Source of the DNA: Candidatus Aenigmarchaeota archaeon LH_S7
Lineage (GTDB): Archaea > Aenigmatarchaeota > Aenigmatarchaeia > QMZS01
Assembly: GCA_023659895.1 (NCBI GenBank)
Contig: JAGXOL010000002.1
Location: 4,388 to 68,387, forward strand
DNA: 64,000 nucleotides
Direction of reading: 5' to 3'
Shown here: positions 1,524 through 59,691 of the stretch, piece by piece
Position numbering within the stretch: the first letter of the stretch is position 1
Layout of the letters: every line of letters begins with the position of its first letter
The notes under the pieces: model-generated
Seen by the model: only the letters and a program-made list of their open reading frames with translations
What the model was told of the DNA's origin: nothing
Databases searched by the model: none
Translations under genes and position numbers: made by a program

Positions 1524-1781
1524 TTACTTACCTTTAATTTTATCAATAAGTTTTCTCAATGGATTTTTTGATTCTTCTCCTTTTTCCGCTTCCTTTAGTT
1601 CTTTGTTCAGTTCGTCTAAGTCTTTCTTTTCTCCAGGTTTCTGTTCCATAGGTGGTTTTTGTGGTTCCATTGGTGGTTTTGTAGGTTTTTTGGCTCCCAT
1701 TCCTTCTTGTTTTTTCGATAATTCTGTTTTCTTTTTCCTTTGTTTTTTCTTTAGTTCTTCAAGTTTCTTTTTGTCTACCAT
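1524..1781 (-). CDS. Small Lys/Glu/Pro-rich hypothetical protein
   Basis: This is an 85-aa ORF with a KPPME repeat. The overlapping plus-strand ORF is an S/F-rich low-complexity mirror. Which strand codes is uncertain. Confidence 0.35.
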   Translation of the reverse strand: MVDKKKLEELKKKQRKKKTELSKKQEGMGAKKPTKPPMEPQKPPMEQKPGEKKDLDELNKELKEAEKGEESKNPLRKLIDKIKGK

Positions 1782-1809
1782 AATTTTCCTTTTTTATATT
1801 AAATAAATT

Positions 1810-2481
1810 ATGGAAGTCTTCATAGGTACTAGTGGGTGGTCCTATAAATGGAATAAAGACAAGAGTTTGGATTGGTTTTTGGAGAATTCTGGTTTGGATG
1901 CTGTTGAACTGAATGCGAGTTTTTACATGTTTCCTTTTCCTAACATGGTTAAGAGCTGGGCTAAGAAAGGTCAGGAGATAAGATGGAGTATTAAGGTGAA
2001 TCAGTGGATCACTCATAGGAAGAAGTTCAGTGAATGCAAGGAATTGTGGGACAAGTTTAAAAGAAAGTTTAAGACAATGGACAAATTTATTGATTTCTAT
2101 TTGTTTCAGGCTCCCCCAAAGTTTGAAGATTATGAGAAAGTAATAGAGCTTGCTAAGTACACAGGTTTAGGAAAGAGGTTTGCTTTTGAAGTTAGGAACA
2201 GAGAATGGTTAGAAAGTGAGGAGAAGTTTAAAGAATTGAAGAAGAAGATTACTTTGGTATCTATAGATTCACCTGATTTTCATTCAAAGATTTTTAGGGA
2301 TAAAGTTGTTTATTTGAGGATGCATGGGAAAGATAATTGGTATCAGCACAATTATTCAGATAAAGAGTTAAAAGAAATTGTTGGAAAGATTAAGGGAGTC
2401 AAGCCAAAAAAGGTCTATGTGTTTTTCAATAATAACCATGACATGCTAAACAATGCTCAAACAATGAAAGAATTATTTTAG
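1810..2481 (+). CDS. DUF72 (YecE-like) family protein
   Basis: It has the N-terminal IGTSGWSYKW signature and the length typical of DUF72. Confidence 0.85.
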   Translation: MEVFIGTSGWSYKWNKDKSLDWFLENSGLDAVELNASFYMFPFPNMVKSWAKKGQEIRWSIKVNQWITHRKKFSECKELWDKFKRKFKTMDKFIDFYLFQAPPKFEDYEKVIELAKYTGLGKRFAFEVRNREWLESEEKFKELKKKITLVSIDSPDFHSKIFRDKVVYLRMHGKDNWYQHNYSDKELKEIVGKIKGVKPKKVYVFFNNNHDMLNNAQTMKELF

Positions 2482-4136
2482 TTAGAACTTTTCTTATATA
2501 GGTTCTCAATTCTATTTAAAGTATCTACTTCTTCCACGCTTTTGTCCTCTCTTATTCTGATCAGTTTTGGGAACCTTAGTGCATAACCACTCTCATAGGT
2601 AGGGGATTTCTGTATTTCCTGATAGCCTGTCTCAACAACAACTTTTGGTTTTATCCTAACTTTGTTCTCTTTTTCAAATTCAATTAAGGGTTTTAATGTT
2701 TTGGTCATCTCCTTGAACTGCTCATCTGTTAAACCAGTCCCCATCTTTCCAATCCCTAATAATTCTCCTGTTTCCTCATCTCTAGCAGCTAGAATAAAAG
2801 AAGCGAGCCAATTTGCTCTTCTTCCCTGTCCCCATTCAGCTCCAACCACAACCAAGTCCAAGGTTTCCTCTTCTGGTTTTACTTTGTACATGTACCCAAC
2901 TCTTTTCCCTGGTTGGTAAGGTGCATCCAAGTTTTTAACCATTATTCCCTCTTGTCCCAAATCCAAGGCCTCGTTGTAGAATTTCTCTACTTTTTCAACA
3001 TCTTTAGTAACCAACTGCTCAGCTAGTTGAAATTTTCCTTTTTCCTGGGAGATAATTTCTTCCAGTTTTTTCCTCCTTTTTGAGAACTTCTCATCAAGTA
3101 ATTGCTTCCTGTCTACAAGAAGACAATCAAACAAGTTTACTTGCACTGGTATCTCCTGTGACATTTTCCTGATGTTATACTTTCTTTGGATTCTTTTGCT
3201 GAGTTCCTGGAAAGGTAAGAGTTTTCCATCTCTAATTGCAACTGCTTCTCCCTCAAGAATTGACTTTTCCACTTTAATATTTTTCTTGCAGAGCTCAACA
3301 ATATCAGGGAATTGCTTTGTAACATTTTCCAATCTTCTGGTAAAGACCCATATTTTTTCTCCCTCCTTTTGGGTTAAGATGCGGGTTCCATCATACTTGT
3401 ATTCTATAGCTGGGTTCTTAGCATCTTCCAAAGCTTTTTCCAGGTTTTCGGATTTTTCAGCAAGCATTGCTTTTGTTGGAGTTCCAATTTCCAAGCTTAT
3501 TTTTTTCAATCCTTTGTCCCCATCATTTTTTGCTATCTTTGCAACTCTTCCAAAATCAGTAATTAAATTGTAATCTCTTTCAACTAGCTCTTTGTCAACT
3601 TCAAAAGCTTTTGATGTTGCATCTCTCAAGATTCCCTCCGCAGTGCCCAATCTTAGCTCTCCAAGAATTGTTCTAATAACATATCTTGCCTCTGAAGGTT
3701 CCGCTGAGTTGAGTAGTTCAAGAATGTTGTTGATTTTTCTTTCTTGGGAGTTCTTTCCAGTATATTTCGCGATTTCTCTTATAGATTCGTAAACCTTTTT
3801 TATTTTTAAACTTTTCTTGAAAAGAATTGATTGTTTCTTTTTTTTGGCTATTTCCTGGGCAACCAAACCTAAATCACCACTATCTTTGAACTTGTCCATT
3901 ATCTCCTTTTTAGAATAACCTAATTTTGTTAGGGCAAGTATAACTAGATTATCTGCAATTCCTAGATCTTCTTCTTCACTTTCAGAGAAGATTTTTCCTC
4001 TCAACAAAGGCATTACAATTTTTAATTCCTCACCATTGAGGTCTTTAATAAAGTTTGCAATAATATCAGTTTTCTCAAGTTTTTTTGTTGTACTTCCAAC
4101 CTTATCATAAACATCAACCAAAGTTTTGTATTTCAT
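2478..4136 (-). CDS. lig: ATP-dependent DNA ligase
   Basis: It has the adenylation motif EYKYDGTR (KxDG), an OB-fold C-terminus and a length of 552 aa. Confidence 0.95.
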   Translation of the reverse strand: MKYKTLVDVYDKVGSTTKKLEKTDIIANFIKDLNGEELKIVMPLLRGKIFSESEEEDLGIADNLVILALTKLGYSKKEIMDKFKDSGDLGLVAQEIAKKKKQSILFKKSLKIKKVYESIREIAKYTGKNSQERKINNILELLNSAEPSEARYVIRTILGELRLGTAEGILRDATSKAFEVDKELVERDYNLITDFGRVAKIAKNDGDKGLKKISLEIGTPTKAMLAEKSENLEKALEDAKNPAIEYKYDGTRILTQKEGEKIWVFTRRLENVTKQFPDIVELCKKNIKVEKSILEGEAVAIRDGKLLPFQELSKRIQRKYNIRKMSQEIPVQVNLFDCLLVDRKQLLDEKFSKRRKKLEEIISQEKGKFQLAEQLVTKDVEKVEKFYNEALDLGQEGIMVKNLDAPYQPGKRVGYMYKVKPEEETLDLVVVGAEWGQGRRANWLASFILAARDEETGELLGIGKMGTGLTDEQFKEMTKTLKPLIEFEKENKVRIKPKVVVETGYQEIQKSPTYESGYALRFPKLIRIREDKSVEEVDTLNRIENLYKKSSN

Positions 4137-8209: not shown

Positions 8210-8552
8210 GTGATTATCTGTGTTTGGGGAATTTACAAATGGGAGATTGTATTTAACATTTGACATTAAGAGAAGTTTCTGAGCGAAGCGAAGAAATTTG
8301 GACGGAGCCTGCAAGGTGGGATCTCTTAATCACTGTTATGTGTTTTTTCTGCAAGAAAAAATAGCGAAGCTTAGGCACATTTACCAATTTCCTCCAACCA
8401 ACCAGATTTCAAGGAATTAGCGAAGGAGTTACTTAATAGAGGCTTTGGAACTAATAAAAGAGATATAAGGATTATCTCTGAAAGCCCTGTTACTGAGCAA
8501 GATAGTTTAAGGATGAAGAAAATTTTGGAAAAATGTAGAGACTAAAGGGATT

Positions 8553-9089
8553 TTATTTTCTTGATTTAATAGGTTTCTCTCCTGTAATACATTGTTTACA
8601 ATAGTTATCCTGGTCTCCTAATACATCAAATAATCCTTTTTGAGAAATATAATCCAATTCGAACGGAATTCCATAGTTTTCGGATAAATATTTTTCTATT
8701 TCTCTTTCATTTCTATATCTCCTCATTATAAACTCATCATTTTTAGGCATGTCAACACCATAACAACAAAAACAATTTTCATCTCTGCCTACTGGAGGAG
8801 TTCCTGAAAGATAATATATTTTTTCAATTCCAGCTTCTTCAGATATTTCAACAACTCTTTCTAACACATTCCCTCTTATTATAGAATCATCAACAAAAAT
8901 CACTCTTTTTTCATATAAAATTTCAGGTCTCTCAAAATATAAATTCTCTTTTATCGATTTTCTTCTTTCTTCCTTTGTTGATTGTATAAATGACCTCTCA
9001 AATTTTTTCTTTTTTAGCTCAGGTAAATAGGGAATCCCACTTTTTTCAGAGTAACCAATGGCATAGGGTTTTTCCTGTATTTGGGACAT
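8553..9089 (-). CDS. purF: Amidophosphoribosyltransferase, C-terminal PRTase part (frame interrupted)
   Basis: It has PYAIGYSEKSGIPY, the PRPP loop VIFVDDSIIRGN and CCYGVDMP. It continues the upstream ORF if one A is removed from the A5 run at 9069-9073. Confidence 0.8.
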   Translation of the reverse strand: MSQIQEKPYAIGYSEKSGIPYLPELKKKKFERSFIQSTKEERRKSIKENLYFERPEILYEKRVIFVDDSIIRGNVLERVVEISEEAGIEKIYYLSGTPPVGRDENCFCCYGVDMPKNDEFIMRRYRNEREIEKYLSENYGIPFELDYISQKGLFDVLGDQDNYCKQCITGEKPIKSRK

Positions 9090-9921
9090 CCATTACAATG
9101 TCTGCTTCTATTTCAAATTCCTCTGCTAATTTCTTCCCTAAAGATTTTCTTGTATCCCAATTTTTTCTTCCTTTAAAAGTAGAGTTTGGGTTAGACAAGT
9201 AATTTATCTCAAAGAAACAAAAATTTTCTTCTGGTTCAACCACTTTTTCAAAGCTTACCTTATCATCCTCTATATAAACTATTTCCCCAGGATGTACTTC
9301 TCTTATCGGTTTACCACCTATTTTCTTTATTGGAAAGTCTTCTGAGCAGAGGACTGGCAACTCCTCTTTTTCTCCATACCATAAAGGCTTAATTCCATAT
9401 CTGTCTCTGCATCCTATCACATTACCTTCATCTAAGATTATCATTGAATAAGAACCTGGAATTTCTTCCATTAACTTATGAATTCCATATTTCTTGTAAG
9501 TTTGTAGAAGTAATTCTGTATCACTTTCCATTTCATTAGGAAATATCTTATCTCCAACTACCTGTCCATTGTGAACTATTGCAGAACTAGCACCCTTTGT
9601 AAAAGAAGTTTGTTTTTCTGTGCTTAAACTATCATACCCATCTATTGTTATAGGATGAGCATCTTTTAATAACTCCTTTTTTGATCCCTGAGTTGCATAT
9701 CTTGTGTGGATAGCAAATTGCTCTCCTCTCATTTTCTCAATATCCTCGTAACTTTCCCTATAAACCTTTCCAAGCCACCGCCTAGAGTCTATTTCTTTAT
9801 CTTCCATCCCTGCTATTCCTGTAGTTTCTTCACCTCTATGTTCTAGACCCCTAAGCATTACATAAGCATCAAAACGAGAATTTACAAATCCTACACCACA
9901 TTTATCTCTTAAACTTCCCAT
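9046..9921 (-). CDS. purF: Amidophosphoribosyltransferase, N-terminal glutamine amidotransferase part (frame interrupted)
   Basis: It has a class II GATase N-terminus (CGV..HRGEE) and runs to DVPNTGK before the frame is lost. Confidence 0.8.
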   Translation of the reverse strand: MGSLRDKCGVGFVNSRFDAYVMLRGLEHRGEETTGIAGMEDKEIDSRRWLGKVYRESYEDIEKMRGEQFAIHTRYATQGSKKELLKDAHPITIDGYDSLSTEKQTSFTKGASSAIVHNGQVVGDKIFPNEMESDTELLLQTYKKYGIHKLMEEIPGSYSMIILDEGNVIGCRDRYGIKPLWYGEKEELPVLCSEDFPIKKIGGKPIREVHPGEIVYIEDDKVSFEKVVEPEENFCFFEINYLSNPNSTFKGRKNWDTRKSLGKKLAEEFEIEADIVMDVPNTGKTLCHWLL

Positions 9922-12954: not shown

Positions 12955-13534
12955 TTCACCCCCCTGAAAAATGTTATGGCTATTCCTGGAGAAAAAATTT
13001 TGGATTTTTATAAAAATAAAGACTATCAGAAAATGGAAGAAGCTGTTATAAAAAATTTGCATGCCTCTGAAAAACTATATTCAACTATCTTGAAAACTTT
13101 CTATTACTCTGCTTATACCTTGTACATCATATTCTCCCCTTTCTACCATAGTACAATAATCATTAAAATTATTTATAATTTTTGGTAGTGGGGTATATAT
13201 AATTTTCGATGATAGAATATATAAATCTAGAGAAATTAAAGAAAATTTAACAAGAAACGAGGCAGAATGCCTGGACAATTGCGAATTAGAATAAGATTTA
13301 GAAAATACGTCGGAAATTGGTTTGATTATCTGACTGTTTCTAAAGATGAAATGAAAGATATTCTGAAAGACACTAGTTAGAAAGTTAGAAATTTATTGAT
13401 TCTGATAAATCAGCTTATATAGCAGTTATTGAGAAAATATGAATGCTCACACAAAAAAACTTCTACGCTCACTTTCGTTCACTCCTCGACCATGCCTTCT
13501 AGACTCTTGCTTACGCTTGGGCGTTGAACAGCGC

Positions 13535-14032
13535 TTATCTAGAACTTTCCTGCGAAACTTTATAGAAATAACTTCTTATCAAATTACACAATCGAGATGC
13601 TTTATTTAGATAATCTAAAGCAATTTCAGCTTCTTTCTCTGTAAAAATTTTAGATATTCCAATTTTTTCTAATTTTTCTTCTCCATATAATGAGATGTTT
13701 CGCCATAGGTGGAAGACTTTACTTCCAATTATTATTCTTACTATGTCTTCTTTAGGAAAATGGTAATCTTTGAGTACAAATTTTAGTTTTTCATAAGTAG
13801 ACATGATTTGATTGCTTAATTCATGTCCTTTTATGTTTGTTGGATATTCTTCTCTCATTAGCTTAAACACAACTTTGAGAAAAAGTTCAAAAGCTTCCTG
13901 CGACCTTCTTACACAAAGATCATAATTGTACTTTTTGAAATCTGATGCTTCTTGTTCTATATCTCTTGCTTTCATATATTGTTTATCAATCTTTTGTAAT
14001 TCTTTCATCGTCCAACTGGGATTTTCTGTCAT
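13535..14032 (-). CDS. HEPN domain protein
   Basis: It has a helical bundle pattern with SQEAFELFLK..KGHEL and a C-terminal RNISLYG, which matches classic HEPN PF05168-like features by eye. It overlaps the upstream NERD gene by ATGA. Confidence 0.65.
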   Translation of the reverse strand: MTENPSWTMKELQKIDKQYMKARDIEQEASDFKKYNYDLCVRRSQEAFELFLKVVFKLMREEYPTNIKGHELSNQIMSTYEKLKFVLKDYHFPKEDIVRIIIGSKVFHLWRNISLYGEEKLEKIGISKIFTEKEAEIALDYLNKASRLCNLIRSYFYKVSQESSR

Positions 14033-14730
14033 TTTGAATATTTTAAAATTAATTTTCCTATTGATTCTAACTCTTTCGGAGAAAATTTTATCCTTGATTT
14101 TTTATATTTGATAAAGTTGTATAATTCTTCAACTTTTAAAACTGGAACTGTTGGGTTATTTAATTCTAACTCAGCATTAGGATTTGTGAAAACAACAATT
14201 CCTTCAACCCATATTGGTTTTTTGAATATTTTTTGTATAAATTGTTTTAGTTTTACAGCATTTCTCTTAACTTGTTTACTTGGGCTACCAATACTATAAT
14301 CTCTCGATGGCTTCCAATATGGTCTTCCTCTCATACTTATTGTTAGACCACCTTCATAATGTCTATGCCATTCATCACCATTGCAAATAAGTTTCCCATC
14401 ATAATTTTTACTTTCAATAGCGAATATACCATTATGTCCTAAAATGATACAGTCAATATTTCCATAACTTTCTGATAACATTACATCATTAACCAAAGAA
14501 TATCTATTGTTTAATTCTTCTAAAGTTTCTTTGATTAATGTTTCACCAGTTTTTCCTTTCCTATATTGACCACTTTTAATGAAGAAGTATATAGAAATTC
14601 CTACGAATATTATACCCAATCCATAAAATATGAGAGTCACTAAACCTATTACCAAAAATATTATTGCTATTTTCTCATTAGATTTTCTTTGTTCTTCTAA
14701 ATATTCTCCAGTTTCTTTTAAAACTTTCAT
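14029..14730 (-). CDS. NERD (nuclease-related domain) protein with N-terminal transmembrane hairpin
   Basis: It has two TM helices followed by GKTGETLIKETLEEL..NDVML..GNIDCIILGHNGIFAIESKNYDG, the NERD signature. The ATG at 14730 is preferred over the upstream TTG, which lies inside the IS terminal repeat. Confidence 0.75.
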   Translation of the reverse strand: MKVLKETGEYLEEQRKSNEKIAIIFLVIGLVTLIFYGLGIIFVGISIYFFIKSGQYRKGKTGETLIKETLEELNNRYSLVNDVMLSESYGNIDCIILGHNGIFAIESKNYDGKLICNGDEWHRHYEGGLTISMRGRPYWKPSRDYSIGSPSKQVKRNAVKLKQFIQKIFKKPIWVEGIVVFTNPNAELELNNPTVPVLKVEELYNFIKYKKSRIKFSPKELESIGKLILKYSK

Positions 14731-14767
14731 AATATAAAAAACTAGTTTATATGATTTTATATATAAA

Positions 14768-15774
14768 GGTGTGCGAAATAAAATAACCAACTAATCAACT
14801 CTCTACAGGAAGCCTAATTTCGCACACTTACTTCACTAAAGAGACCAGTTCCACCTTACTATTTTAGATTCTAAATCTGCTAAACTCCCTGAGACTTGTT
14901 TTGTTATTGATAATGCTGTCAACAGCAGTGAGCAATATTGCACTCAATGAAGCAAAAACAACAGATATTTTTCTTTTAATTCCAACAACATTCTGCCAAC
15001 ATTTATCCATTGAGTTTTTGATAACTGAATTGAACTGCTCAACAATATATCTCTTTTTCTTCAGTATTTTTGGAGTCCAACGTCTTTTCTTGGTGTTCCT
15101 CCTGTTTTTTGCAATTACTGGTTTTGCCCCTTTCTCTCTACAAGCTTTTCTATTGGCCTCTGAATCATAACCAGCATCTGCTAAAGCAAGTTTACCTGAG
15201 ACCAATAACTCTGGTAAGAAAGGGGAATCATGTTTGTTTCCTGTTGTTAAAATTGCCTTTAGAGGCAATCCAAGTTGGTTTACAGAAAGATGTGTTTTAA
15301 ATCCTTTGAATGCTCCTCTCGAGTAAAAACCAACTTTGGTATCTGGATCTTCTTCATCCACCAAAGGAGTTGAGTCTATTATCAATAGTTCTGTTGGAAT
15401 AATCATCTGAATTATTGATGACAATTTGTTGAATACTTGTGTTACTAGATCAGAATATGTTTTCTTCCAGACACTAAGTCTTGACCTGTCTGGAACTCCT
15501 GTTAATCCAAGGCTTCTTCTTATTTTTGGATTCATTCGTTGCTTCACAACGATGCACCGTTTTGCTTCGCAAAACGAGTGTGCTTTTAAATGTCTGATTA
15601 ACTGGCAATCATTGAATCCTCTAATTTTCTGGTAAATTAAAGTTCTTGTTCTTGGTACATTTCTATATCCTCTTCTACCTCTGCCTTTCTGAGATGGAAC
15701 CATCCCTTTGTTTACCAAATGTCTTATAATATTACCTGCTTCCATCTATTAATTTGGTTTATTTCGCACACCCC
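14768..15774 (-). mobile_element. IS4/IS5-superfamily insertion sequence, copy 1
   Basis: It has terminal inverted repeats GGTGTGCGAAATAAA at both ends, plus a third internal copy of GTGTGCGAAAT near the 3' end. TTTATATAT-like sequence is present on both flanks. Confidence 0.85.
14864..15745 (-). CDS. DDE transposase (DDE_Tnp_1, IS4/IS5 type), 293 aa, with a 16-aa insert
   Basis: It has the motifs IIDSTPL, ADAGYDS and RYIVEQFNSVIKN. It is about 90% identical to the copy at 42185-43018, apart from the HSFCEAKRCIVVKQRM insert. Confidence 0.9.
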   Translation of the reverse strand: MEAGNIIRHLVNKGMVPSQKGRGRRGYRNVPRTRTLIYQKIRGFNDCQLIRHLKAHSFCEAKRCIVVKQRMNPKIRRSLGLTGVPDRSRLSVWKKTYSDLVTQVFNKLSSIIQMIIPTELLIIDSTPLVDEEDPDTKVGFYSRGAFKGFKTHLSVNQLGLPLKAILTTGNKHDSPFLPELLVSGKLALADAGYDSEANRKACREKGAKPVIAKNRRNTKKRRWTPKILKKKRYIVEQFNSVIKNSMDKCWQNVVGIKRKISVVFASLSAILLTAVDSIINNKTSLREFSRFRI

Positions 15775-15944
15775 TATTTATATATTTTACAAAAATACGC
15801 TTGCTTAGGGCAAACTCTTCGCAAAACTTCGTTTTGCTCGTCTCGGACTTCGTCCTCAAGAATATAACAGCGATTAAGAGGTAAAATTTCTTACAGAAAT
15901 TTCCCAAATTTTCACTTCATGAAAACTTCTTTTAACGGCATACG

Positions 15945-16022
15945 TTAACTGTGAATTGGCTTCGGGTCGCTTTAATATTAGAACTGAAGAAAAGATTATT
16001 AACGGGCGGTCGCTTTAATTTT
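15945..16022 (+). repeat. Left arm of an imperfect inverted repeat flanking the nuclease gene
   Basis: CTGTGAATTGG..CTTCGG..GGCGGTCGCTTTAA matches the reverse complement of 17453-17524 (CTGTTAATTGC..CCGAAGG..GGTGGTCGCTTTCA). Anchor spacing is about 59 versus 61 nt. Confidence 0.5.
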
Positions 16023-17406
16023 ATAACCAAACATTTTCTCCACATTTATCACAAAATTTAGCAGATTTTGGAAGTTGTTTTCCACAATTAGTGCAATATT
16101 TTATATTTTCTTCTAATGGAGGTTCTTGTCCAAATACTTTTATTTCTATTGGATATTTTGAACCTTTAATTGCATATTCAAGTTCTTTATCATGTTCTTT
16201 AACTATAATTATTCCTCTGACTTGCTTGTCTTGTGCCAAATTTTCATTAACCCATGCCATATATTTTTGGATTTGACCAACAACTTTATGAGAACCTTTA
16301 TCTTGTTTCAATTCTATAACAACAAAATTTCCATTTTTATCTTTGCATAAAATATCTATATAACCAACACCAGTTGTATACTGGTTTCCAATCAAGTCCA
16401 AACCGTCTTCTAAAATTTCTGGATTAGATATAATTGAAGTTTCAATCTCATATTCTAAAACTTCGCTTATTGCTCCTGTTTCTTCAAAATCTTCAATACT
16501 CCAAGCTTTTTCTAATTTCTTTGTTTCTTTTTCTTTAATAATTTCTTTTATTTTCTTTTCAAAATTTTCGGGTTTTGGTAATTTATCTTTAAAGCCCTTT
16601 ACACTTTCATAAATAAAGTTTGGTATTACAAATTCTATCGTTATTTTTCCTTTAGCACTTAAATAAAATGTCCAATATCCTACCCCACTTTCTACTAATC
16701 TATCTCCAAATTGCCAAAAACTATATTCTTCAGGTTGTGGCGGTGGAAACAATATTAACCTTCCACTCTTTCTATATGATTTGGTTTTGAATCTTTGCTC
16801 TTTTAGTTCTTCATCAAATAAGATATTAAAAATATATGTCCACTCTTTTGGATCAATCTTAAAATAAAGTATTTCACCAGTTTTTTCATTGACATTTACA
16901 TTAAAATCAGGAAGTAAACGATATTTATCATGACAATTTGGATTTTCTTGTTTTATTTTTTCAGCTTCTTTAATCGAATCGGTTATTCTAATTGGAATAT
17001 AATTTAAAGTAAAAGATAATACTTCCTTGTCTAATTCGGGTAATTTATTTAATTTGTTATTAACATTTTGTGTTAGAATTTTAGATGTCTTACTAAATAA
17101 TATTTCTCTCAATAATTTATCATCTTCGTTAAAAGTTTCCTTTAGAAAATTTGGTATGCTATTGAGGAAATCTACAAAAATATTACTCTTCTCTTTAATT
17201 TGTGGTGAATTTATTCCATATTTTTTCTGTAAATTTCTGGCACAAACTTTACCGAACCATTTTTTGAATGCTACTTGATTATTAAGATATCCAAACATAG
17301 ATGGAATAGAATAGGAAAAAATCCAAAGAATATCTAAAATTTGATTATCTTGTTTACTAATTGTGTTTTCTATGAAACTTTCAATTTTGATTTTTGTATC
17401 TGTCAT
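16021..17406 (-). CDS. NucS/DUF91-like PD-(D/E)xK nuclease domain protein with C-terminal zinc ribbon and an unassigned 300-aa N-terminal region
   Basis: The C-terminal block GYIDILCKDKNGNFVVIELKQDKG..VGQIQKYMAWV matches the RecB-like DUF91 core. It is followed by CTNCGKQLPKSAKFCDKCG. Confidence 0.65.
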   Translation of the reverse strand: MTDTKIKIESFIENTISKQDNQILDILWIFSYSIPSMFGYLNNQVAFKKWFGKVCARNLQKKYGINSPQIKEKSNIFVDFLNSIPNFLKETFNEDDKLLREILFSKTSKILTQNVNNKLNKLPELDKEVLSFTLNYIPIRITDSIKEAEKIKQENPNCHDKYRLLPDFNVNVNEKTGEILYFKIDPKEWTYIFNILFDEELKEQRFKTKSYRKSGRLILFPPPQPEEYSFWQFGDRLVESGVGYWTFYLSAKGKITIEFVIPNFIYESVKGFKDKLPKPENFEKKIKEIIKEKETKKLEKAWSIEDFEETGAISEVLEYEIETSIISNPEILEDGLDLIGNQYTTGVGYIDILCKDKNGNFVVIELKQDKGSHKVVGQIQKYMAWVNENLAQDKQVRGIIIVKEHDKELEYAIKGSKYPIEIKVFGQEPPLEENIKYCTNCGKQLPKSAKFCDKCGENVWL

Positions 17407-17452
17407 AATAATAACTAAAATCCTAATGAAACTTAAAAAGCTTTCTTTTTTT

Positions 17453-17524
17453 GAAAGCGACCACCTTTATTTTTTAATGACCCTCAGCTGACTTTCTTGC
17501 CTTCGGCTCGGGGCAATTAACAGG
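17453..17524 (-). repeat. Right arm of the inverted repeat flanking the nuclease gene
   Basis: See the left-arm entry at 15945-16022. Confidence 0.5.
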
Positions 17525-17736
17525 AATTTAATGGAAAAATGCGAGCTGAGCATTTTTCCCAAAGCGCCTTCAGTGACTTCGTTAAATTCTGATATTATAT
17601 GCAATCCACCTCCACTATCAAAAAATTATATAATACTAAAGTTGTTATTGTTAATTATGAAAAATAAAGATGATTGGTTAATTTTGAATGTATATGTGGA
17701 TAAACCTGATAAAATAGAAAATTAGCTGTGTTTATT

Positions 17737-18768
17737 ATGGATAAAAAAATATTAGTTAAAAACATAGTGGATGAATTTTTTAGAGAGGATTTTAACAGAG
17801 CACTATTAGTGACAGATAATTTAAAGCAAATCATTAACATAGTAAAAGAAAAATATAAGCTAAATGCTATATACCTAACTGATGCATTATCCTCTATTAT
17901 TAATGAAGGTGTTTTAAATCATTTGGCATCTTACAGAGCAAAAACAAGAAGAATGAAGGGATTTCATAACGCTTTGTGGGAATATTCAGAAAATAAGATA
18001 AGTAAAGAAAATTTACATAAAATAGCAAAGCAATCCATTAGGAGAAGTATTATAACAAATACTAGAAATGCATATCAAAGTTGGGTTCTATTATCATTGC
18101 TAAATTTGGTTAACTGCAAACTCCTTGTTAGACAATATAATTCGGATACAAATGGATACGAATTTAAATACATCGATGAACTACCTGATGAGTTAAAATA
18201 TATTTCTTTAGAAAGCCAAAGAGATTATAAAGGAATTCATCCAAATTTTGCACTAGAAATTTCTGGCAGATTCTTTAGCATCTTTTATGAAGGACCTGGG
18301 ATTATTGAATGGAATTTATATTCTAAAGAAACCGATAAAACCTTTTGGAAATTATATGGCGCACCTAGACCAGATATAATGATTTATTCTGGACAAATTG
18401 ATAATATTTACTCTCCTAGTGTAAAACCATTTCCAATCATGAAACCAGACATTATTATAGAATGCAAAGAAGAAGGAAACTGGTATAAAAAACTAAAACA
18501 GAGATCTGTATATGATGGGGCCAAAGATTGGAGAAATGCGGCCATTGAAAGTAGAGAACAGAAAAAAGAAAAAATAGATGATTTAGAAAATGTGAAAGAA
18601 TATCTAGAAATTTATTCACCAAAAAATTTGTTTTTAGTTAGCTGGAAGGAAACACCAAACAAGACTTGTGAAGAGTTAATAAATTCTGGAATTACTTGTA
18701 TAAATAAAGTAAATTTTGATAAAGATAAATTAATAAAAATTGTCGAAACAATCAAACAATCCAATTAA
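17737..18768 (+). CDS. Hypothetical protein with a restriction-endonuclease-like (PD-(D/E)xK) motif
   Basis: RPDIMIY ... KPDIIIECKEE fits a D..(D/E)xK arrangement. No other family signal was seen. The ATG at 17737 is preferred over the GTG at 17728. Confidence 0.45.
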   Translation: MDKKILVKNIVDEFFREDFNRALLVTDNLKQIINIVKEKYKLNAIYLTDALSSIINEGVLNHLASYRAKTRRMKGFHNALWEYSENKISKENLHKIAKQSIRRSIITNTRNAYQSWVLLSLLNLVNCKLLVRQYNSDTNGYEFKYIDELPDELKYISLESQRDYKGIHPNFALEISGRFFSIFYEGPGIIEWNLYSKETDKTFWKLYGAPRPDIMIYSGQIDNIYSPSVKPFPIMKPDIIIECKEEGNWYKKLKQRSVYDGAKDWRNAAIESREQKKEKIDDLENVKEYLEIYSPKNLFLVSWKETPNKTCEELINSGITCINKVNFDKDKLIKIVETIKQSN

Positions 18769-27463: not shown

Positions 27464-27616
27464 AGTCCGAAAGAAATAAAGAAATAACAAGGATTACTGC
27501 AACTTAACAAATACTGTAATTTTGCCGTAGCACTTATTGATTGCAGTAATCCATCTATTCATGTATATATTTCGCTGGAATATATTTAAAGTTTTTTGTA
27601 GAATTAAGGCAATTGT

Positions 27617-42078: not shown

Positions 42079-42155
42079 AAAATTTAACAAAATTTAATAA
42101 ATAAGTGTTGTTTTTTTCTTAACAATGAAGCAAGTATTTCTAAAAAAATAGTATA

Positions 42156-43116
42156 GGGGTGTGTGAAATAAACCAAATTAATAGATGGAAGCAGGTAATA
42201 TTATAAGACATTTGGTAAACAAAGGGATGGTTCCATCTCAGAAAGGCAGAGGTAGAAGAGGATATAGAAATGTACCAAGAACAAGAACTTTAATTTACCA
42301 GAAAATTAGAGGATTCAATGATTGCCAGTTAATCAGACATTTAAAAGCAAATCCAAAAGTTAGAAGAAGCCTTGGATTAACAGGAGTTCCAGACAGGTCA
42401 AGACTCAGTGTCTGGAAGAATCTATATTCGGATCTTGTGATAACTGCCTTCAACAAATTGTCATCAATAATCCAGATGATAATTCCAACAGACATGTTAG
42501 TTGCGGATTCAACTCCTTTAGTGGATGAAGAAGATCCAGATGCAAAAGTTGGTTTTAATTCAAGAGGGGCATTCAAAGGATTTAAAACACATCTTTCTGT
42601 AAACCATCTTGGATTGCCTCTAAAGGCAATTTTAACAACAGGCAATAAACATGATTCCCCTTTCTTACCAGAGTTATTGGTCTCAGGTAAACTTGCTTTA
42701 GCAGATGCTGGTTATGATTCAGAGGCCAATAGAAAAGCTTGTAGAGAGAAAGGGGCAAAACCAGTAATTGCAAAAAACAGGAGGAACACCAAGAAAAGAC
42801 GTTGGACTCCAAAAATACTGAAGAAAAAGAGATATATTGTTGAGCAGTTCAATTCAATTATCAAGAACTCAATGGATAAATGTTGGCAGAAGGTTAGAGG
42901 AATCATAAGAAAAACATCTGTTGTTTTTGCTTCATTGAGTGCAATATTGCTCACTGCTATTGACAGTATTATCAATAACAAAACAAGTCTCAGGGAATTC
43001 AGCAGATTTAGAATCTAAAATAGTAAGGTGGAAATTATCTCTTTAGTGGGAGCATGTGTGCGAAATTAGGCTTCCTGTAGAGAGTTGATTAGTTGGTTAT
43101 TTTATTTCGCACACCC
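42156..43116 (+). mobile_element. IS4/IS5-superfamily insertion sequence, copy 2
   Basis: It has the same termini as copy 1 (GGGGTGTGTGAAATAAACC ... TTATTTCGCACACCC). It is flanked by AAAAATAGTAT on both sides. Confidence 0.85.
42185..43018 (+). CDS. DDE transposase (IS4/IS5 type), 277 aa
   Basis: It has VADSTPL, ADAGYDS and RYIVEQFNSIIKN. Confidence 0.9.
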   Translation: MEAGNIIRHLVNKGMVPSQKGRGRRGYRNVPRTRTLIYQKIRGFNDCQLIRHLKANPKVRRSLGLTGVPDRSRLSVWKNLYSDLVITAFNKLSSIIQMIIPTDMLVADSTPLVDEEDPDAKVGFNSRGAFKGFKTHLSVNHLGLPLKAILTTGNKHDSPFLPELLVSGKLALADAGYDSEANRKACREKGAKPVIAKNRRNTKKRRWTPKILKKKRYIVEQFNSIIKNSMDKCWQKVRGIIRKTSVVFASLSAILLTAIDSIINNKTSLREFSRFRI

Positions 43117-43154
43117 TTAAAAATAGTATTTAAAAATTTAAAACATATTACACT

Positions 43155-49097: not shown

Positions 49098-50732
49098 CTA
49101 ATAACCCACATAATACAATTTAACCAAATAAGGAATTTTATTCCCATTTATATCTGAATAATATTGCATACAATAACTACTGTCTTCAGGTATATCTCTA
49201 TCAAAAACAAAATGGTGTTCTCCAGCAGTCCAAAACATTCCTGTCCTCAAAAGTAATTTTAAATCATCTCTTGTTTTATTAAAATCATACATCCAAAAAG
49301 CTCTTGGAGAAGTTTCATAGGTCTTACCATACTCTTCTAAAATCTTAGCATTCACTAAACTTATTGTTGTGTCTGAAGAAGGGGACAGAACTGTATATTC
49401 ATTTGAATCTACTGTCAGAGGAACATTATCCTTAAAAGTATAATTTCTTGGATTTGATGCAGTTGGAGAAATCTTTACATCAAATGAATCATTGTTTTCT
49501 ATTTGGTAAACACCTAGTTTCACAGAAGAAGAATGCATACAATACTCTCCTTTACTCGTACTATTAGGGCATCCTGTTATATTTACACAAAAACCAAAAT
49601 TTTCAACAGGATATTTACCATCATGCAAATATAAGTTTCCACTTCCTCCACTAGTATCTATTCTAACAATATTATCAAGGAATCTTTTTGCAATCATTCC
49701 TGTATTAGGGTTAGATAAATTGTTGAAACTTAAATCCTTTGTAGAAAAGCTTCCCCAAATATAATTTATTTGAAAAATTTCCTTTGTCAAGGAATCTGGA
49801 TTAGAAGTAAAATCCCTGATCAGAACAATTCCTTTACCTTTTCTTAACAGATTCTTTACATTTGATTCATAATCAGATAAATTTACATTACCACAAACAA
49901 TATAAGTGTCAAAACTGTTATCTGATAGCAAGTTTGCTATGCTCAATATATTTGTACTAATATTTTTTGGAGGATAGTTTGCACTAAAAAATTCTGAAGG
50001 TAAATTGCAACTGTCATGTATTCCCACAGAAATATTTTGTCCAGAAATACCTTTTATCTCATATTCAAAATCTACCATCGGAGGAAAGGTTTCACTACTT
50101 AAATCCTCAAAATATTCTTTATCCAAACTTCTATACAAGCATAGTTTTCGTAGTTCAAGACTATTATTTGGTTCAGAAGTAGCTTCACAATATGCGGTTG
50201 TATATAAAGTAATATTGTTTTCTCCTTCATTAAAAGAAAAAGTGCCTGCATCCTCATATCTTATACTACTATTATGACCTTCTAAATCATCCCTCAGCTC
50301 TGTACCATTAACACCATTAACCTCTATATAGCCTTGTTCCCGTAACTCCTCAGAGCCGTTTCTATATACTCTTGCTACAACTGAATAATTACCCGCGATT
50401 GGAACATTTATAGTTATGGTATTATTAGTAGGGCATGATTTAGTGCAGTTCACTCCGCACACATGCCAATCAGTTTTATTGTAAGTGTAATCAGCACCCT
50501 CACAAGCTCTCAAAGCATAATTTTCTTCAGATGATAAAGCACTTTTTGAAATATCATTTATAGACACAGAATTGAGTAAATCATTACAAATAATATTATC
50601 ACTCACTTCCCTCCAATTATTTTTTTCTGTTTGTTTTGTATCTGGTAAAAGATTAGGTAAAATTACTACCAAAACTATGAAAGAAAACAAAACCACTTCT
50701 ATCACCCTAATAAATCCTTTTTTAGCTAACAT
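49098..50732 (-). CDS. Large pilin-like or secreted protein with class III signal peptide
   Basis: MLAKKG|FIRVIEVVLFSFIVLVVIL is followed by a 500-aa N/S/T-rich extracellular region with many NxS/T sites. Confidence 0.55.
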   Translation of the reverse strand: MLAKKGFIRVIEVVLFSFIVLVVILPNLLPDTKQTEKNNWREVSDNIICNDLLNSVSINDISKSALSSEENYALRACEGADYTYNKTDWHVCGVNCTKSCPTNNTITINVPIAGNYSVVARVYRNGSEELREQGYIEVNGVNGTELRDDLEGHNSSIRYEDAGTFSFNEGENNITLYTTAYCEATSEPNNSLELRKLCLYRSLDKEYFEDLSSETFPPMVDFEYEIKGISGQNISVGIHDSCNLPSEFFSANYPPKNISTNILSIANLLSDNSFDTYIVCGNVNLSDYESNVKNLLRKGKGIVLIRDFTSNPDSLTKEIFQINYIWGSFSTKDLSFNNLSNPNTGMIAKRFLDNIVRIDTSGGSGNLYLHDGKYPVENFGFCVNITGCPNSTSKGEYCMHSSSVKLGVYQIENNDSFDVKISPTASNPRNYTFKDNVPLTVDSNEYTVLSPSSDTTISLVNAKILEEYGKTYETSPRAFWMYDFNKTRDDLKLLLRTGMFWTAGEHHFVFDRDIPEDSSYCMQYYSDINGNKIPYLVKLYYVGY

Positions 50733-59538: not shown

Positions 59539-59576
59539 ACTTGAATTTCAAAAAAATTTTTAAAAAGAAAATAATA

Positions 59577-59691
<115 letters not shown>

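Follow-up and report, generated by a model that had tools for sequence, protein, structure and literature searches.

A NucS-like nuclease gene as the probable cargo of an integron-type cassette between attC-type hairpins in an Aenigmarchaeota chromosome

Sedentary chromosomal integron arrays, of which the Vibrio superintegron is an example, consist of highly similar attC sites with interspersed toxin-antitoxin cassettes, and some of their cassettes have their own promoters and lie in reverse orientation. Archaeal integrons are mostly clusters of attC sites lacking integron integrases (CALINs), defined by at least two attCs less than 4 kb apart; typical archaeal cassette cargo comprises toxin-antitoxin systems, restriction enzymes and acetyltransferases, and the listed carriers include ANME-1, Methanoperedenaceae and Nanoarchaeota (DPANN) genomes (Ghaly et al. 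2022, Sci Adv, PMC9668308). Here we describe a 64,000-nucleotide stretch of Candidatus Aenigmarchaeota archaeon LH_S7 (contig JAGXOL010000002.1; the whole stretch is called the window) in which a gene for a nuclease-zinc ribbon protein is bracketed by inverted repeats. An initial annotation had read these as ~75-nt inverted arms of a mobile cassette, with the nuclease possibly acting as its own endonuclease, or alternatively of an invertible segment. We consider it likely that an integron-type cassette carries the nuclease gene as cargo and lies between two co-oriented attC-type hairpins, in a CALIN-like arrangement within a variable chromosomal island of this Aenigmarchaeota (DPANN) archaeon. 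The setting is chromosomal: around the locus lie genes for ribosomal proteins, eRF1, RNase P and further housekeeping functions, and the aCPSF1 encoded in the window is 68-79% identical to proteins annotated as Aenigmarchaeota.

Related loci are labelled L001 (same clade as the window gene), L002 (Methanophagales), L003 (ANME-1), L004 (Methanoperedenaceae GB50), L011 (a Dehalococcoidia single-cell genome, SAG), L207 (IMG/VR contig IMGVR_UViG_3300028595_000036) and L260, L261 and L262 (Logan contigs). The attC-type sites of the window were called with covariance models of our own: R1 was built from ten flanking elements of other genomes, with the window and L001 left out, and R2 is one iteration of the attC model with the right site of the window (17512-17602) left out. 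The elements beyond the gene ends are ~90-nt imperfect palindromes that start with ...YTAAC and end with GTTA..., with their cores in direct orientation on either side of the gene. In the ten-element alignment the AAC of R'', CCCAAA, AACTTC and the TTA of R' are among the invariant columns; the G of R' comes close (≥90%). In the R and L helices 85.6% of cells are paired, versus 76.8% in shuffles (0/500 reach the observed value) and at most 42.5% with the register slid, and 6 of the 12 pairs of the L''/L' helix show compensatory changes. Leaving aside the window and the loci of the gene family, R1 gave no match at E ≤ 0.05 among 89 sources, including ~80 control loci with only distant NucS_C proteins, and the attC model had no match in four syntenic Aenigmarchaeota loci.

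Both model matches flanking the gene fall at the place and on the strand that the comparative layout predicts (Table 1). The left site is significant (R1: 31.8 bits, E 1.9e-5, plus strand only; R2: 53.3 bits) and the right one marginal (R1: 16.7 bits, E 0.13; R2, built without it: 23.8 bits, E 0.013), the two being co-oriented and 1.56 kb apart by our own model. The R' of the right site is ambiguous and could be GTTAAAT (17581-17587) or a degenerate ATTATAT (17594-17600). The spacer asymmetry is consistent (3-5 nt after R'', 7-9 nt before R'), and single-stranded DNA folding gave z = -2.25 and -2.96 for the two window sites, z-scores of individual sites being mixed overall. Mini-hairpin modules similar to the one upstream of the left R'' precede the R'' of attCs in L004, L011 and L003. 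The weaker direct similarity outside the arms at 15893-15935 and 17556-17595, pointed out in the initial annotation, lies inside the two co-oriented model matches and is best explained as the conserved attC cores (TTTCCCAAA...ACTTC).

The architecture is clearest in the related loci. In L004, four co-oriented attCs separate cassettes for TIR-STAND, HicBA (HicB-HicA), MNT-HEPN and the nuclease; their R'' boxes read ACTTAAC, AGATAAC, GCCTAAC and ACCTAAC and their R' boxes GTTATCT, GTTAGGC, GTTAGGC and GTTAGTT, with complementary pairs such as GCCTAAC...GTTAGGC. The nuclease gene of L011 lies between two attCs in direct orientation whose 58-nt cores are 91% identical, and L002 holds at least three more attCs. 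Terminal inverted repeats occur on the unrelated cassettes of L004 as well (TIR-STAND, 15/16 nt; MNT-HEPN, 14/16; HicBA, 10 + 14 around a 31-nt hairpin insert). For the L004 cassettes and the L011 nuclease cassette, the complementarity between the cassette start and its own R'' was reached in 0-3 of 500 shuffles. Such terminal complementarity, which spans 16-25 nt in the attC family, is what recombination at G|TT leaves behind; unrelated cassettes have in common the architecture and not the sequence. Since they bear the same end architecture, the repeats can be assigned to the cassette framework, with no action of the nuclease on them required.

Two of the arrays are incomplete at the nuclease cassette. 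In L004 the cassette's own attC is missing from 11436 on, where homology to L003 stops after ...GCGGG, and in L003 about half of the attC at 1744-1800 is left (22.9 bits); the nuclease cassette thus comes last or is damaged in each array. A strict regular expression (RYYYAAC...GTTRRRY with complementary L boxes) proved too strict, finding one site each in L004 and L007. Nearly all hits of a loose DNA pattern scan of viral contigs were chance matches; the exception, the phage-like contig L207, carries at 1627-3745, as found with the attC model, eight co-oriented attCs of the same family between very small open reading frames (ORFs). Its units have the textbook form TCTAAC-AGCG-L''...L'-CGCAGAAC-GTTAGAT, the centres of some attCs measure 130-160 nt and overlap with the ends of ORFs, and a terminase-sized 776-aa ORF beside the array has an intein-like insertion, judged by eye from the translation.

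Placed on this framework, the repeats of the window take on a different meaning. The left outer anchor, CTGTGAATTGG, coincides with the predicted cassette start just after the R' (GTTAACT, 15944-15950) of the left attC, and the right outer anchor, CTGTTAATTGC, corresponds on the opposite strand to the R'' region of the cassette itself (17513-17523). With both loci oriented by attC, the L001 counterpart of the short arm matches CGTTAGTTGCAATTGGCGTCGGGTC after R' in L004 (80% over 45 nt), and the short arm of the window itself was aligned to the CGTTAGTTGCAATTGGCGTCGGGTC region by eye. The long arm was aligned by eye to ...CGACCCGACGCCAACTT, a 30-nt hairpin insert and GGGGCAACTAAC in L003 and L011, and BLAST in the attC orientation gave a plus/plus match at R'' (the long arm region). 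The inner repeat GGGCGGTCGCTTTAATTTTATAAC directly duplicates, at 43-nt spacing, the short arm's inner portion (90% over 20 nt). The inner anchors, GG[CT]GGTCGCTTT, are a repeat pair directly flanking the gene that is specific to the window's clade and also present in L001. Cassette-end complementarity is weaker in the window than in its relatives: the best alignment (12/500 shuffles as high) takes in the inner repeat, and the match between the R boxes, GTTAAC/GTTAAT, was noted by eye alone.

The ~75-nt arms did not stand as wholes. Their best local alignment is the 12-mer GG[CT]GGTCGCTTT alone (score 19 versus 14.4 ± 2.2 for shuffled arms; 84/2000 shuffles reach or exceed it), their global alignment was equalled by 211/2000 shuffles, and 9% of random segment pairs of the window align as well, so that formal alignment leaves the similarity not above chance. 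The anchors were nonetheless taken as real features because of the comparison with other genomes. The small repeat AAAGCGACC, noted earlier as occurring three times around the gene, is indeed present three times in the 64 kb, each time at the nuclease gene, with 0.15 expected and 0/100 shuffles reaching 3. The suggested BLAST search for further copies of the arms, run on the window as a self-comparison of the flanks, returned none and brought up just the neighbouring insertion sequence with its second copy; the cassette is single-copy there.

That the gene and its flanks move as a unit, as the mobile-cassette proposal held, is borne out by gene-plus-flank units at 80-90% nucleotide identity in ANME-1, Methanoperedenaceae and Dehalococcoidia. 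L003 and L004 are 89.6% identical from -105 to +68 around the gene and L003 and L011 80% identical from -108 to +78, and in both comparisons homology ends near the inverted pair GTTAGTTGC...GCAACTAAC. The protein family itself comprises ~80 full-length homologues (35-83% identity) with a patchy distribution over Methanoperedenaceae, ANME-1/Methanophagales, other Methanosarcinales, Woesearchaeota, Aenigmarchaeota, Asgard archaea and Dehalococcoidia. The flanks are conserved in a subset, where the motifs are kept across genomes whose proteins are 65-83% identical; most family members lack such flanks. Each related locus has one gene match; in L011 (6001-7413) the homologue is split into three ORFs, by pseudogenisation or SAG sequencing errors. 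The syntenic Aenigmarchaeota contigs carry different content in the island that separates rpS15/aCPSF1 from DUF2330, and no exact empty site was found in them.

A mechanism can be proposed on this basis. Were the cassette circular or single-stranded, its start, following the G|TT of the upstream R', would pair with its own R'' and so lengthen the attC stem. Delivery, and possibly excision, would be carried out in trans by an IntI-type tyrosine recombinase on folded single-stranded attCs; the encoded nuclease would take no part in cassette mobilisation, and its gene would have a promoter of its own. In the window's clade, the segment of gene plus promoter would have been inverted once between the terminal inverted repeats, leaving the ORF against the attC direction, and the canonical R' of the right attC may have been lost, which would make the cassette an immobile fossil.

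Several points weigh against an integron-type cassette. No integron integrase was found in the screened ORFs of the window or near any related locus: a Pfam search of the cassette-adjacent ORFs and 20 further ORFs (221-439 aa), though not of every ORF, gave no Phage_integrase match, and a regular-expression screen of all ORFs of at least 120 aa found none in the window or the close related loci (attI and Pc were not searched for). With no tyrosine recombinase among the screened ORFs, the locus is therefore at best a short CALIN. The match at the right attC is weak and its R' ambiguous or degenerate, the ORFs of the window and L001 run opposite to attC, which is atypical for cassettes, and a solitary attC-type site beside the housekeeping gene purF would also suit a generic dispersed hairpin repeat. 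The canonical R boxes of attC sites measure 7 nt and are exceeded by the 16-25 nt of terminal complementarity seen here, and a hairpin module before R'' is likewise atypical for attC. Finally, a defence role of the protein would rest on domain similarity and neighbourhood.

Some of these points would suit a reading in which the flanking elements are dispersed hairpins like repetitive extragenic palindromes (REPs) or miniature inverted-repeat transposable elements (MITEs), unrelated to integron recombination and tending to sit between genes. An IntI was not found among the screened ORFs, one copy stands alone by purF (8249-8344) with a marginal one at 27476-27566, and the extended stems and pre-R'' module depart from the usual attC form. 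We regard this explanation as unlikely, given that the AAC...GTT boxes are kept with correct inverse-core/core complementarity (e.g. GCCTAAC/GTTAGGC), that co-oriented arrays separate short cargo genes of typical cassette function, that complementarity links the start of each cassette to its own R'', and that archaeal CALINs have been published from the same taxa (PMC9668308).

The solitary site (8249-8344, minus strand; ACATAAC...GTTAAAT) has the best score of the window, 41.8 bits with R1 and then 60.5 bits, and lies ~200 nt downstream of purF, which is split into two overlapping ORFs (9046-9921 and 8553-9089), suggesting a frameshift or an assembly error. Marginal matches of the attC model at 27476-27566 (minus) and 50087-50132 (plus; 17-18 bits, E 0.06-0.35) may be decayed copies or chance. 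A third candidate attC at 13425-13545 was rejected, its folding z being +0.84 with no model match, and is at most a remnant; 13497-13534 within it looks like what is left of a pre-R''/R'' region (GTTGAACAGCG), which the model does not detect.

We also considered, as an improbable extension, that the attC family, with its long terminal repeats and a GNA/GNRA mini-hairpin module ahead of R'', forms a distinct subclass that lets cassette interiors invert and maybe moves cassettes in integrase-less archaeal arrays; the structure-recognising NucS-like nuclease would then help to process the hairpin ends and not be a mere passenger.

The orientation of the gene bears on the suggestion of an invertible segment, that is, a programmed switch in which the DNA between the arms flips reversibly and controls expression of the nuclease. 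The suggestion has a counterpart in the evolution of the locus. The ORF runs with the attC direction in L002/3, L004/7, L011, L057, L072 and L262 and against it in the window and L001, and when cassettes are oriented by attC their gene bodies match on the minus strand and their flanks on the plus strand (L004 58-102 versus L001 6-50, 80%, E 1e-6). The short arm stays by the upstream R' and the long arm, with its homologous mini-hairpin insert, by the cassette's own R''. With both arms in place, what turned round between the terminal repeats was the interior, made up of the gene and its promoter-like region. The window's clade also has two nested pairs of inverted repeats, one outer and one inner, which would likewise suit a switch. 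When ORF orientations were mapped on a neighbour-joining (NJ) tree, however, the two orientations formed two separate clades, so one past inversion suffices; recurrent inversion was rejected on this ground, and there is no sign of active switching. Moreover, no invertase or recombinase was found nearby among the ORFs screened by Pfam and regular expression, and the promoter-like region lies inside the inverted segment, so that a flip would not obviously switch the gene. A programmed switch is accordingly very unlikely.

Even less probable, in our judgement, is an autonomous transposon or homing cassette in which the PD-(D/E)xK protein cuts its own terminal inverted repeats and thereby mobilises the gene. 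The inverted motifs bracketing the gene, the confinement of AAAGCGACC to the nuclease locus, the occurrence of gene and flanks in distant taxa and some Logan contigs that stop right at the flanks could all be cited in its favour. Yet the same terminal-repeat architecture surrounds unrelated cargo (TIR-STAND, HicBA, MNT-HEPN) in the same array, the outermost repeat bases are the R'/R'' boxes of attC, the window holds one copy and each related locus one match, no target-site duplication was seen at the outer anchors by inspection, and most family members lack the repeats; the idea that the nuclease serves as its own endonuclease at these ends is not supported on these grounds. As to the Logan contigs, L260, L261 and L262 carry close homologues on 1.6-1.8 kb; L262 starts and ends inside attCs (1-122 and 1512-1613), which explains the short contigs and suggests that assemblies break at repeated attCs.

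Chance similarity in AT-rich DNA around an ordinary gene, for which the non-significant alignment of the two 75-nt arms would speak, is refuted by the enrichment of the 9-mer AAAGCGACC, the covariance model match (E 2e-5) and the conservation of the unit across genomes, flank motifs included.

The cargo gene is an intact ORF of 461 aa, and its outline in the initial annotation (an unassigned N-terminal region of ~300 aa, a NucS/RecB-like core and a CxxC..CxxC ribbon) was confirmed by Pfam: NucS_C (PF01939) matches residues 318-404 (E 9e-18, 64.8 bits versus a cut-off of 24), YhcG_C PDDEXK was also matched, and Zn_Ribbon covers residues 437-457. Residues 1-300 had no family or PDB match by Pfam, HMM search of PDB or Foldseek. 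The PD-(D/E)xK triad (D351, E365, K367) and the ribbon cysteines C438, C441, C452 and C455 are invariant in 43 full-length homologues, as are D25, N194, D235 and G241 of the N-terminal region. An AlphaFold2 model (pLDDT 84) places a helical bundle at 1-155 and an alpha/beta unit at 165-275 ahead of the nuclease and the ribbon. The nuclease domain resembles NucS/EndoMS (PDB 2vld, 4e-17 by HMM search; 5gke, 2e-7 by Foldseek), and outside it Foldseek of the model, in which the N-terminal 300 aa were not folded separately, gave no match at E < 0.03. The N-terminal ~300-aa region is therefore described here as new, with helical and alpha/beta parts, and the nuclease family as uncharacterised.

The NCBIfam NucS equivalog scores 76 bits, below its 216-bit cut-off, and the candidate defence families PDC-S02, PDC-S11 and PDC-S18 of PADLOC match the nuclease core (E 1.6e-22 to 4e-8). 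In other proteins the C-terminal nuclease-ribbon module is joined to TPR N-termini, and the N-terminal region is also found alone; gene neighbours are TIR-STAND, HicAB and MNT/HEPN in L004 and NERD in the window. The protein, with its variable N-terminal module, NucS-like PD-(D/E)xK core and Zn ribbon, is most likely a stand-alone DNA-cleaving defence or restriction-like effector. The PADLOC-like core, the module fusions and the defence and toxin-antitoxin neighbours together lead us to favour a putative DNA nuclease that combines sensor and effector and serves in defence or as an addiction module. The region upstream of the ORF would act as its promoter, judging from the TATA-like element; it also contains a hairpin, GCTTTC-T7-GAAAGC at 17440-17458, kept in L001, L006 and L056.

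To the left, the cassette adjoins an insertion sequence (IS) and, beyond it, the neighbouring cassette. The IS is one of two IS5/IS982-like copies of ~1 kb (DDE_Tnp_1; 14767-15781 and ~42128-43125) that are 88.8% identical and inverted relative to each other, with terminal repeats GG(G)GTGTGCGAAATAAA. At 13535-14790 (minus strand) a NERD-domain protein of 253 aa overlaps a 165-aa ORF without a family match that is HEPN-like by eye, and the pair is a probable two-gene defence or toxin-antitoxin-like cassette. To the right, a 346-aa ORF (17728-18768, plus strand) directly follows the right attC, co-oriented, and abuts rpS15; it has a PD...(D/E)xK-like motif, KPDIIIECKEE, had no match in Pfam, NCBIfam or PADLOC, and may be the last cassette, without an attC of its own. 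Rfam gave no match in the cassette region; in the rest of the window it matched a 5S rRNA gene (59576-59691, minus) and a short stretch of tRNA (1304-1361, plus; 58 nt, 33 bits) and no others.

Table 1. Positions of the nuclease cassette, its attC-type sites and repeats, and the adjacent insertion sequence (window coordinates)
Feature	Position	Strand	Remarks
IS5/IS982-like insertion sequence	14767..15781	-	78 nt left of the left attC; outside the cassette, disrupts the neighbouring NERD/HEPN cassette
GC-rich mini-hairpin module, upstream of left R''	15821..15855	+	GCAAAAC-TTC-GTTTTGC 15821-15837; GGAC-TTC-GTCC 15845-15855
Left attC-type site	15859..15952	+	R'' ATATAAC 15862-15868; R' GTTAACT 15944-15950; closes the preceding NERD/HEPN cassette
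Short arm, cassette 5' end TGTGAATTGGCTTCGGGTCGCTTT	15950..15973	+	holds the left outer anchor and the first GGTCGCTTT
Inner repeat GGGCGGTCGCTTTAATTTTATAAC	16004..16027	+	abuts/overlaps the stop codon; kept in L001
461-aa ORF	16021..17406	-	N-terminal region 1-~300; NucS-like PD-(D/E)xK ~318-425; CxxC..CxxC Zn ribbon 438-455
Putative own promoter and short leader	17407..17453	-	TATA-like TTTTTAAG at 17432-17439 (-); kept in L001, L006, L056
Inner repeat AAAGCGACCACC	17454..17465	+	inverted copy of GGTGGTCGCTTT
Long arm	17479..17523	+	GACCCTCAGCTGAC, then GCC-TTC-GGC mini-hairpin insert, then GGGGCAATTAACAG; holds the right outer anchor
Right attC-type site, the cassette's own	17512..17602	+	R'' AATTAAC 17515-17521; central hairpin 17533-17559

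If the gene is indeed integron-type cargo, an uncharacterised nuclease family finds its place among cassettes common to archaea (DPANN, ANME-1, Methanoperedenaceae) and Dehalococcoidia, and the locus adds a concrete, near-identical case of the cross-domain cassette traffic that has been proposed for archaeal integrons. It would illustrate that repeats resembling transposon ends can be cassette ends, and it provides a record of an attC family in which terminal complementarity is unusually long and of a cassette with its interior inverted in one clade. The protein merits consideration as a new single-gene defence nuclease.

Set against known systems, the protein shares with NucS/EndoMS (PDB 2vld, 5gke) the RecB-like PD-(D/E)xK fold of the C-terminal part and the catalytic D...ExK, but lacks the N-terminal DNA-binding/dimerisation domain of NucS, in place of which stands an unrelated region of ~300 aa; a Zn ribbon follows the nuclease, and the family is patchy and cassette-borne rather than housekeeping. 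PDC-S02, PDC-S11 and PDC-S18 have a similar nuclease domain and likewise occur in defence-island and cassette neighbourhoods, whereas the match is limited to a core of ~90-160 residues, the N-terminal region differs and the PDC systems are themselves candidates. With DNA transposons and insertion sequences bounded by terminal inverted repeats the cassette has in common a single gene between inverted terminal sequences, but it has no transposase fold, is single-copy in the window and shows no target duplications by inspection. The Vibrio superintegron is matched in the similarity of attCs within an array (L011 cores 91%), in toxin-antitoxin cassettes and in own promoter and reverse orientation, and differs in that no intI was found here among the screened ORFs, the host is archaeal and the arrays are very short. 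From published archaeal CALINs (PMC9668308) the locus departs in having two sites at the cassette, one of them weak and both called by our own model, in the ORFs of the window and L001 lying against attC, and in its 16-25 nt terminal complementarity and GC-rich mini-hairpin module before R''. It resembles them in its attC-type imperfect palindromes with AAC/GTT boxes, in co-oriented sites between short cargo genes (toxin-antitoxin, nucleases, acetyltransferase), in a chromosomal position with no adjacent integrase, and in overlapping carrier taxa (ANME-1, Methanoperedenaceae, DPANN) with cross-domain sharing that extends to Chloroflexota.

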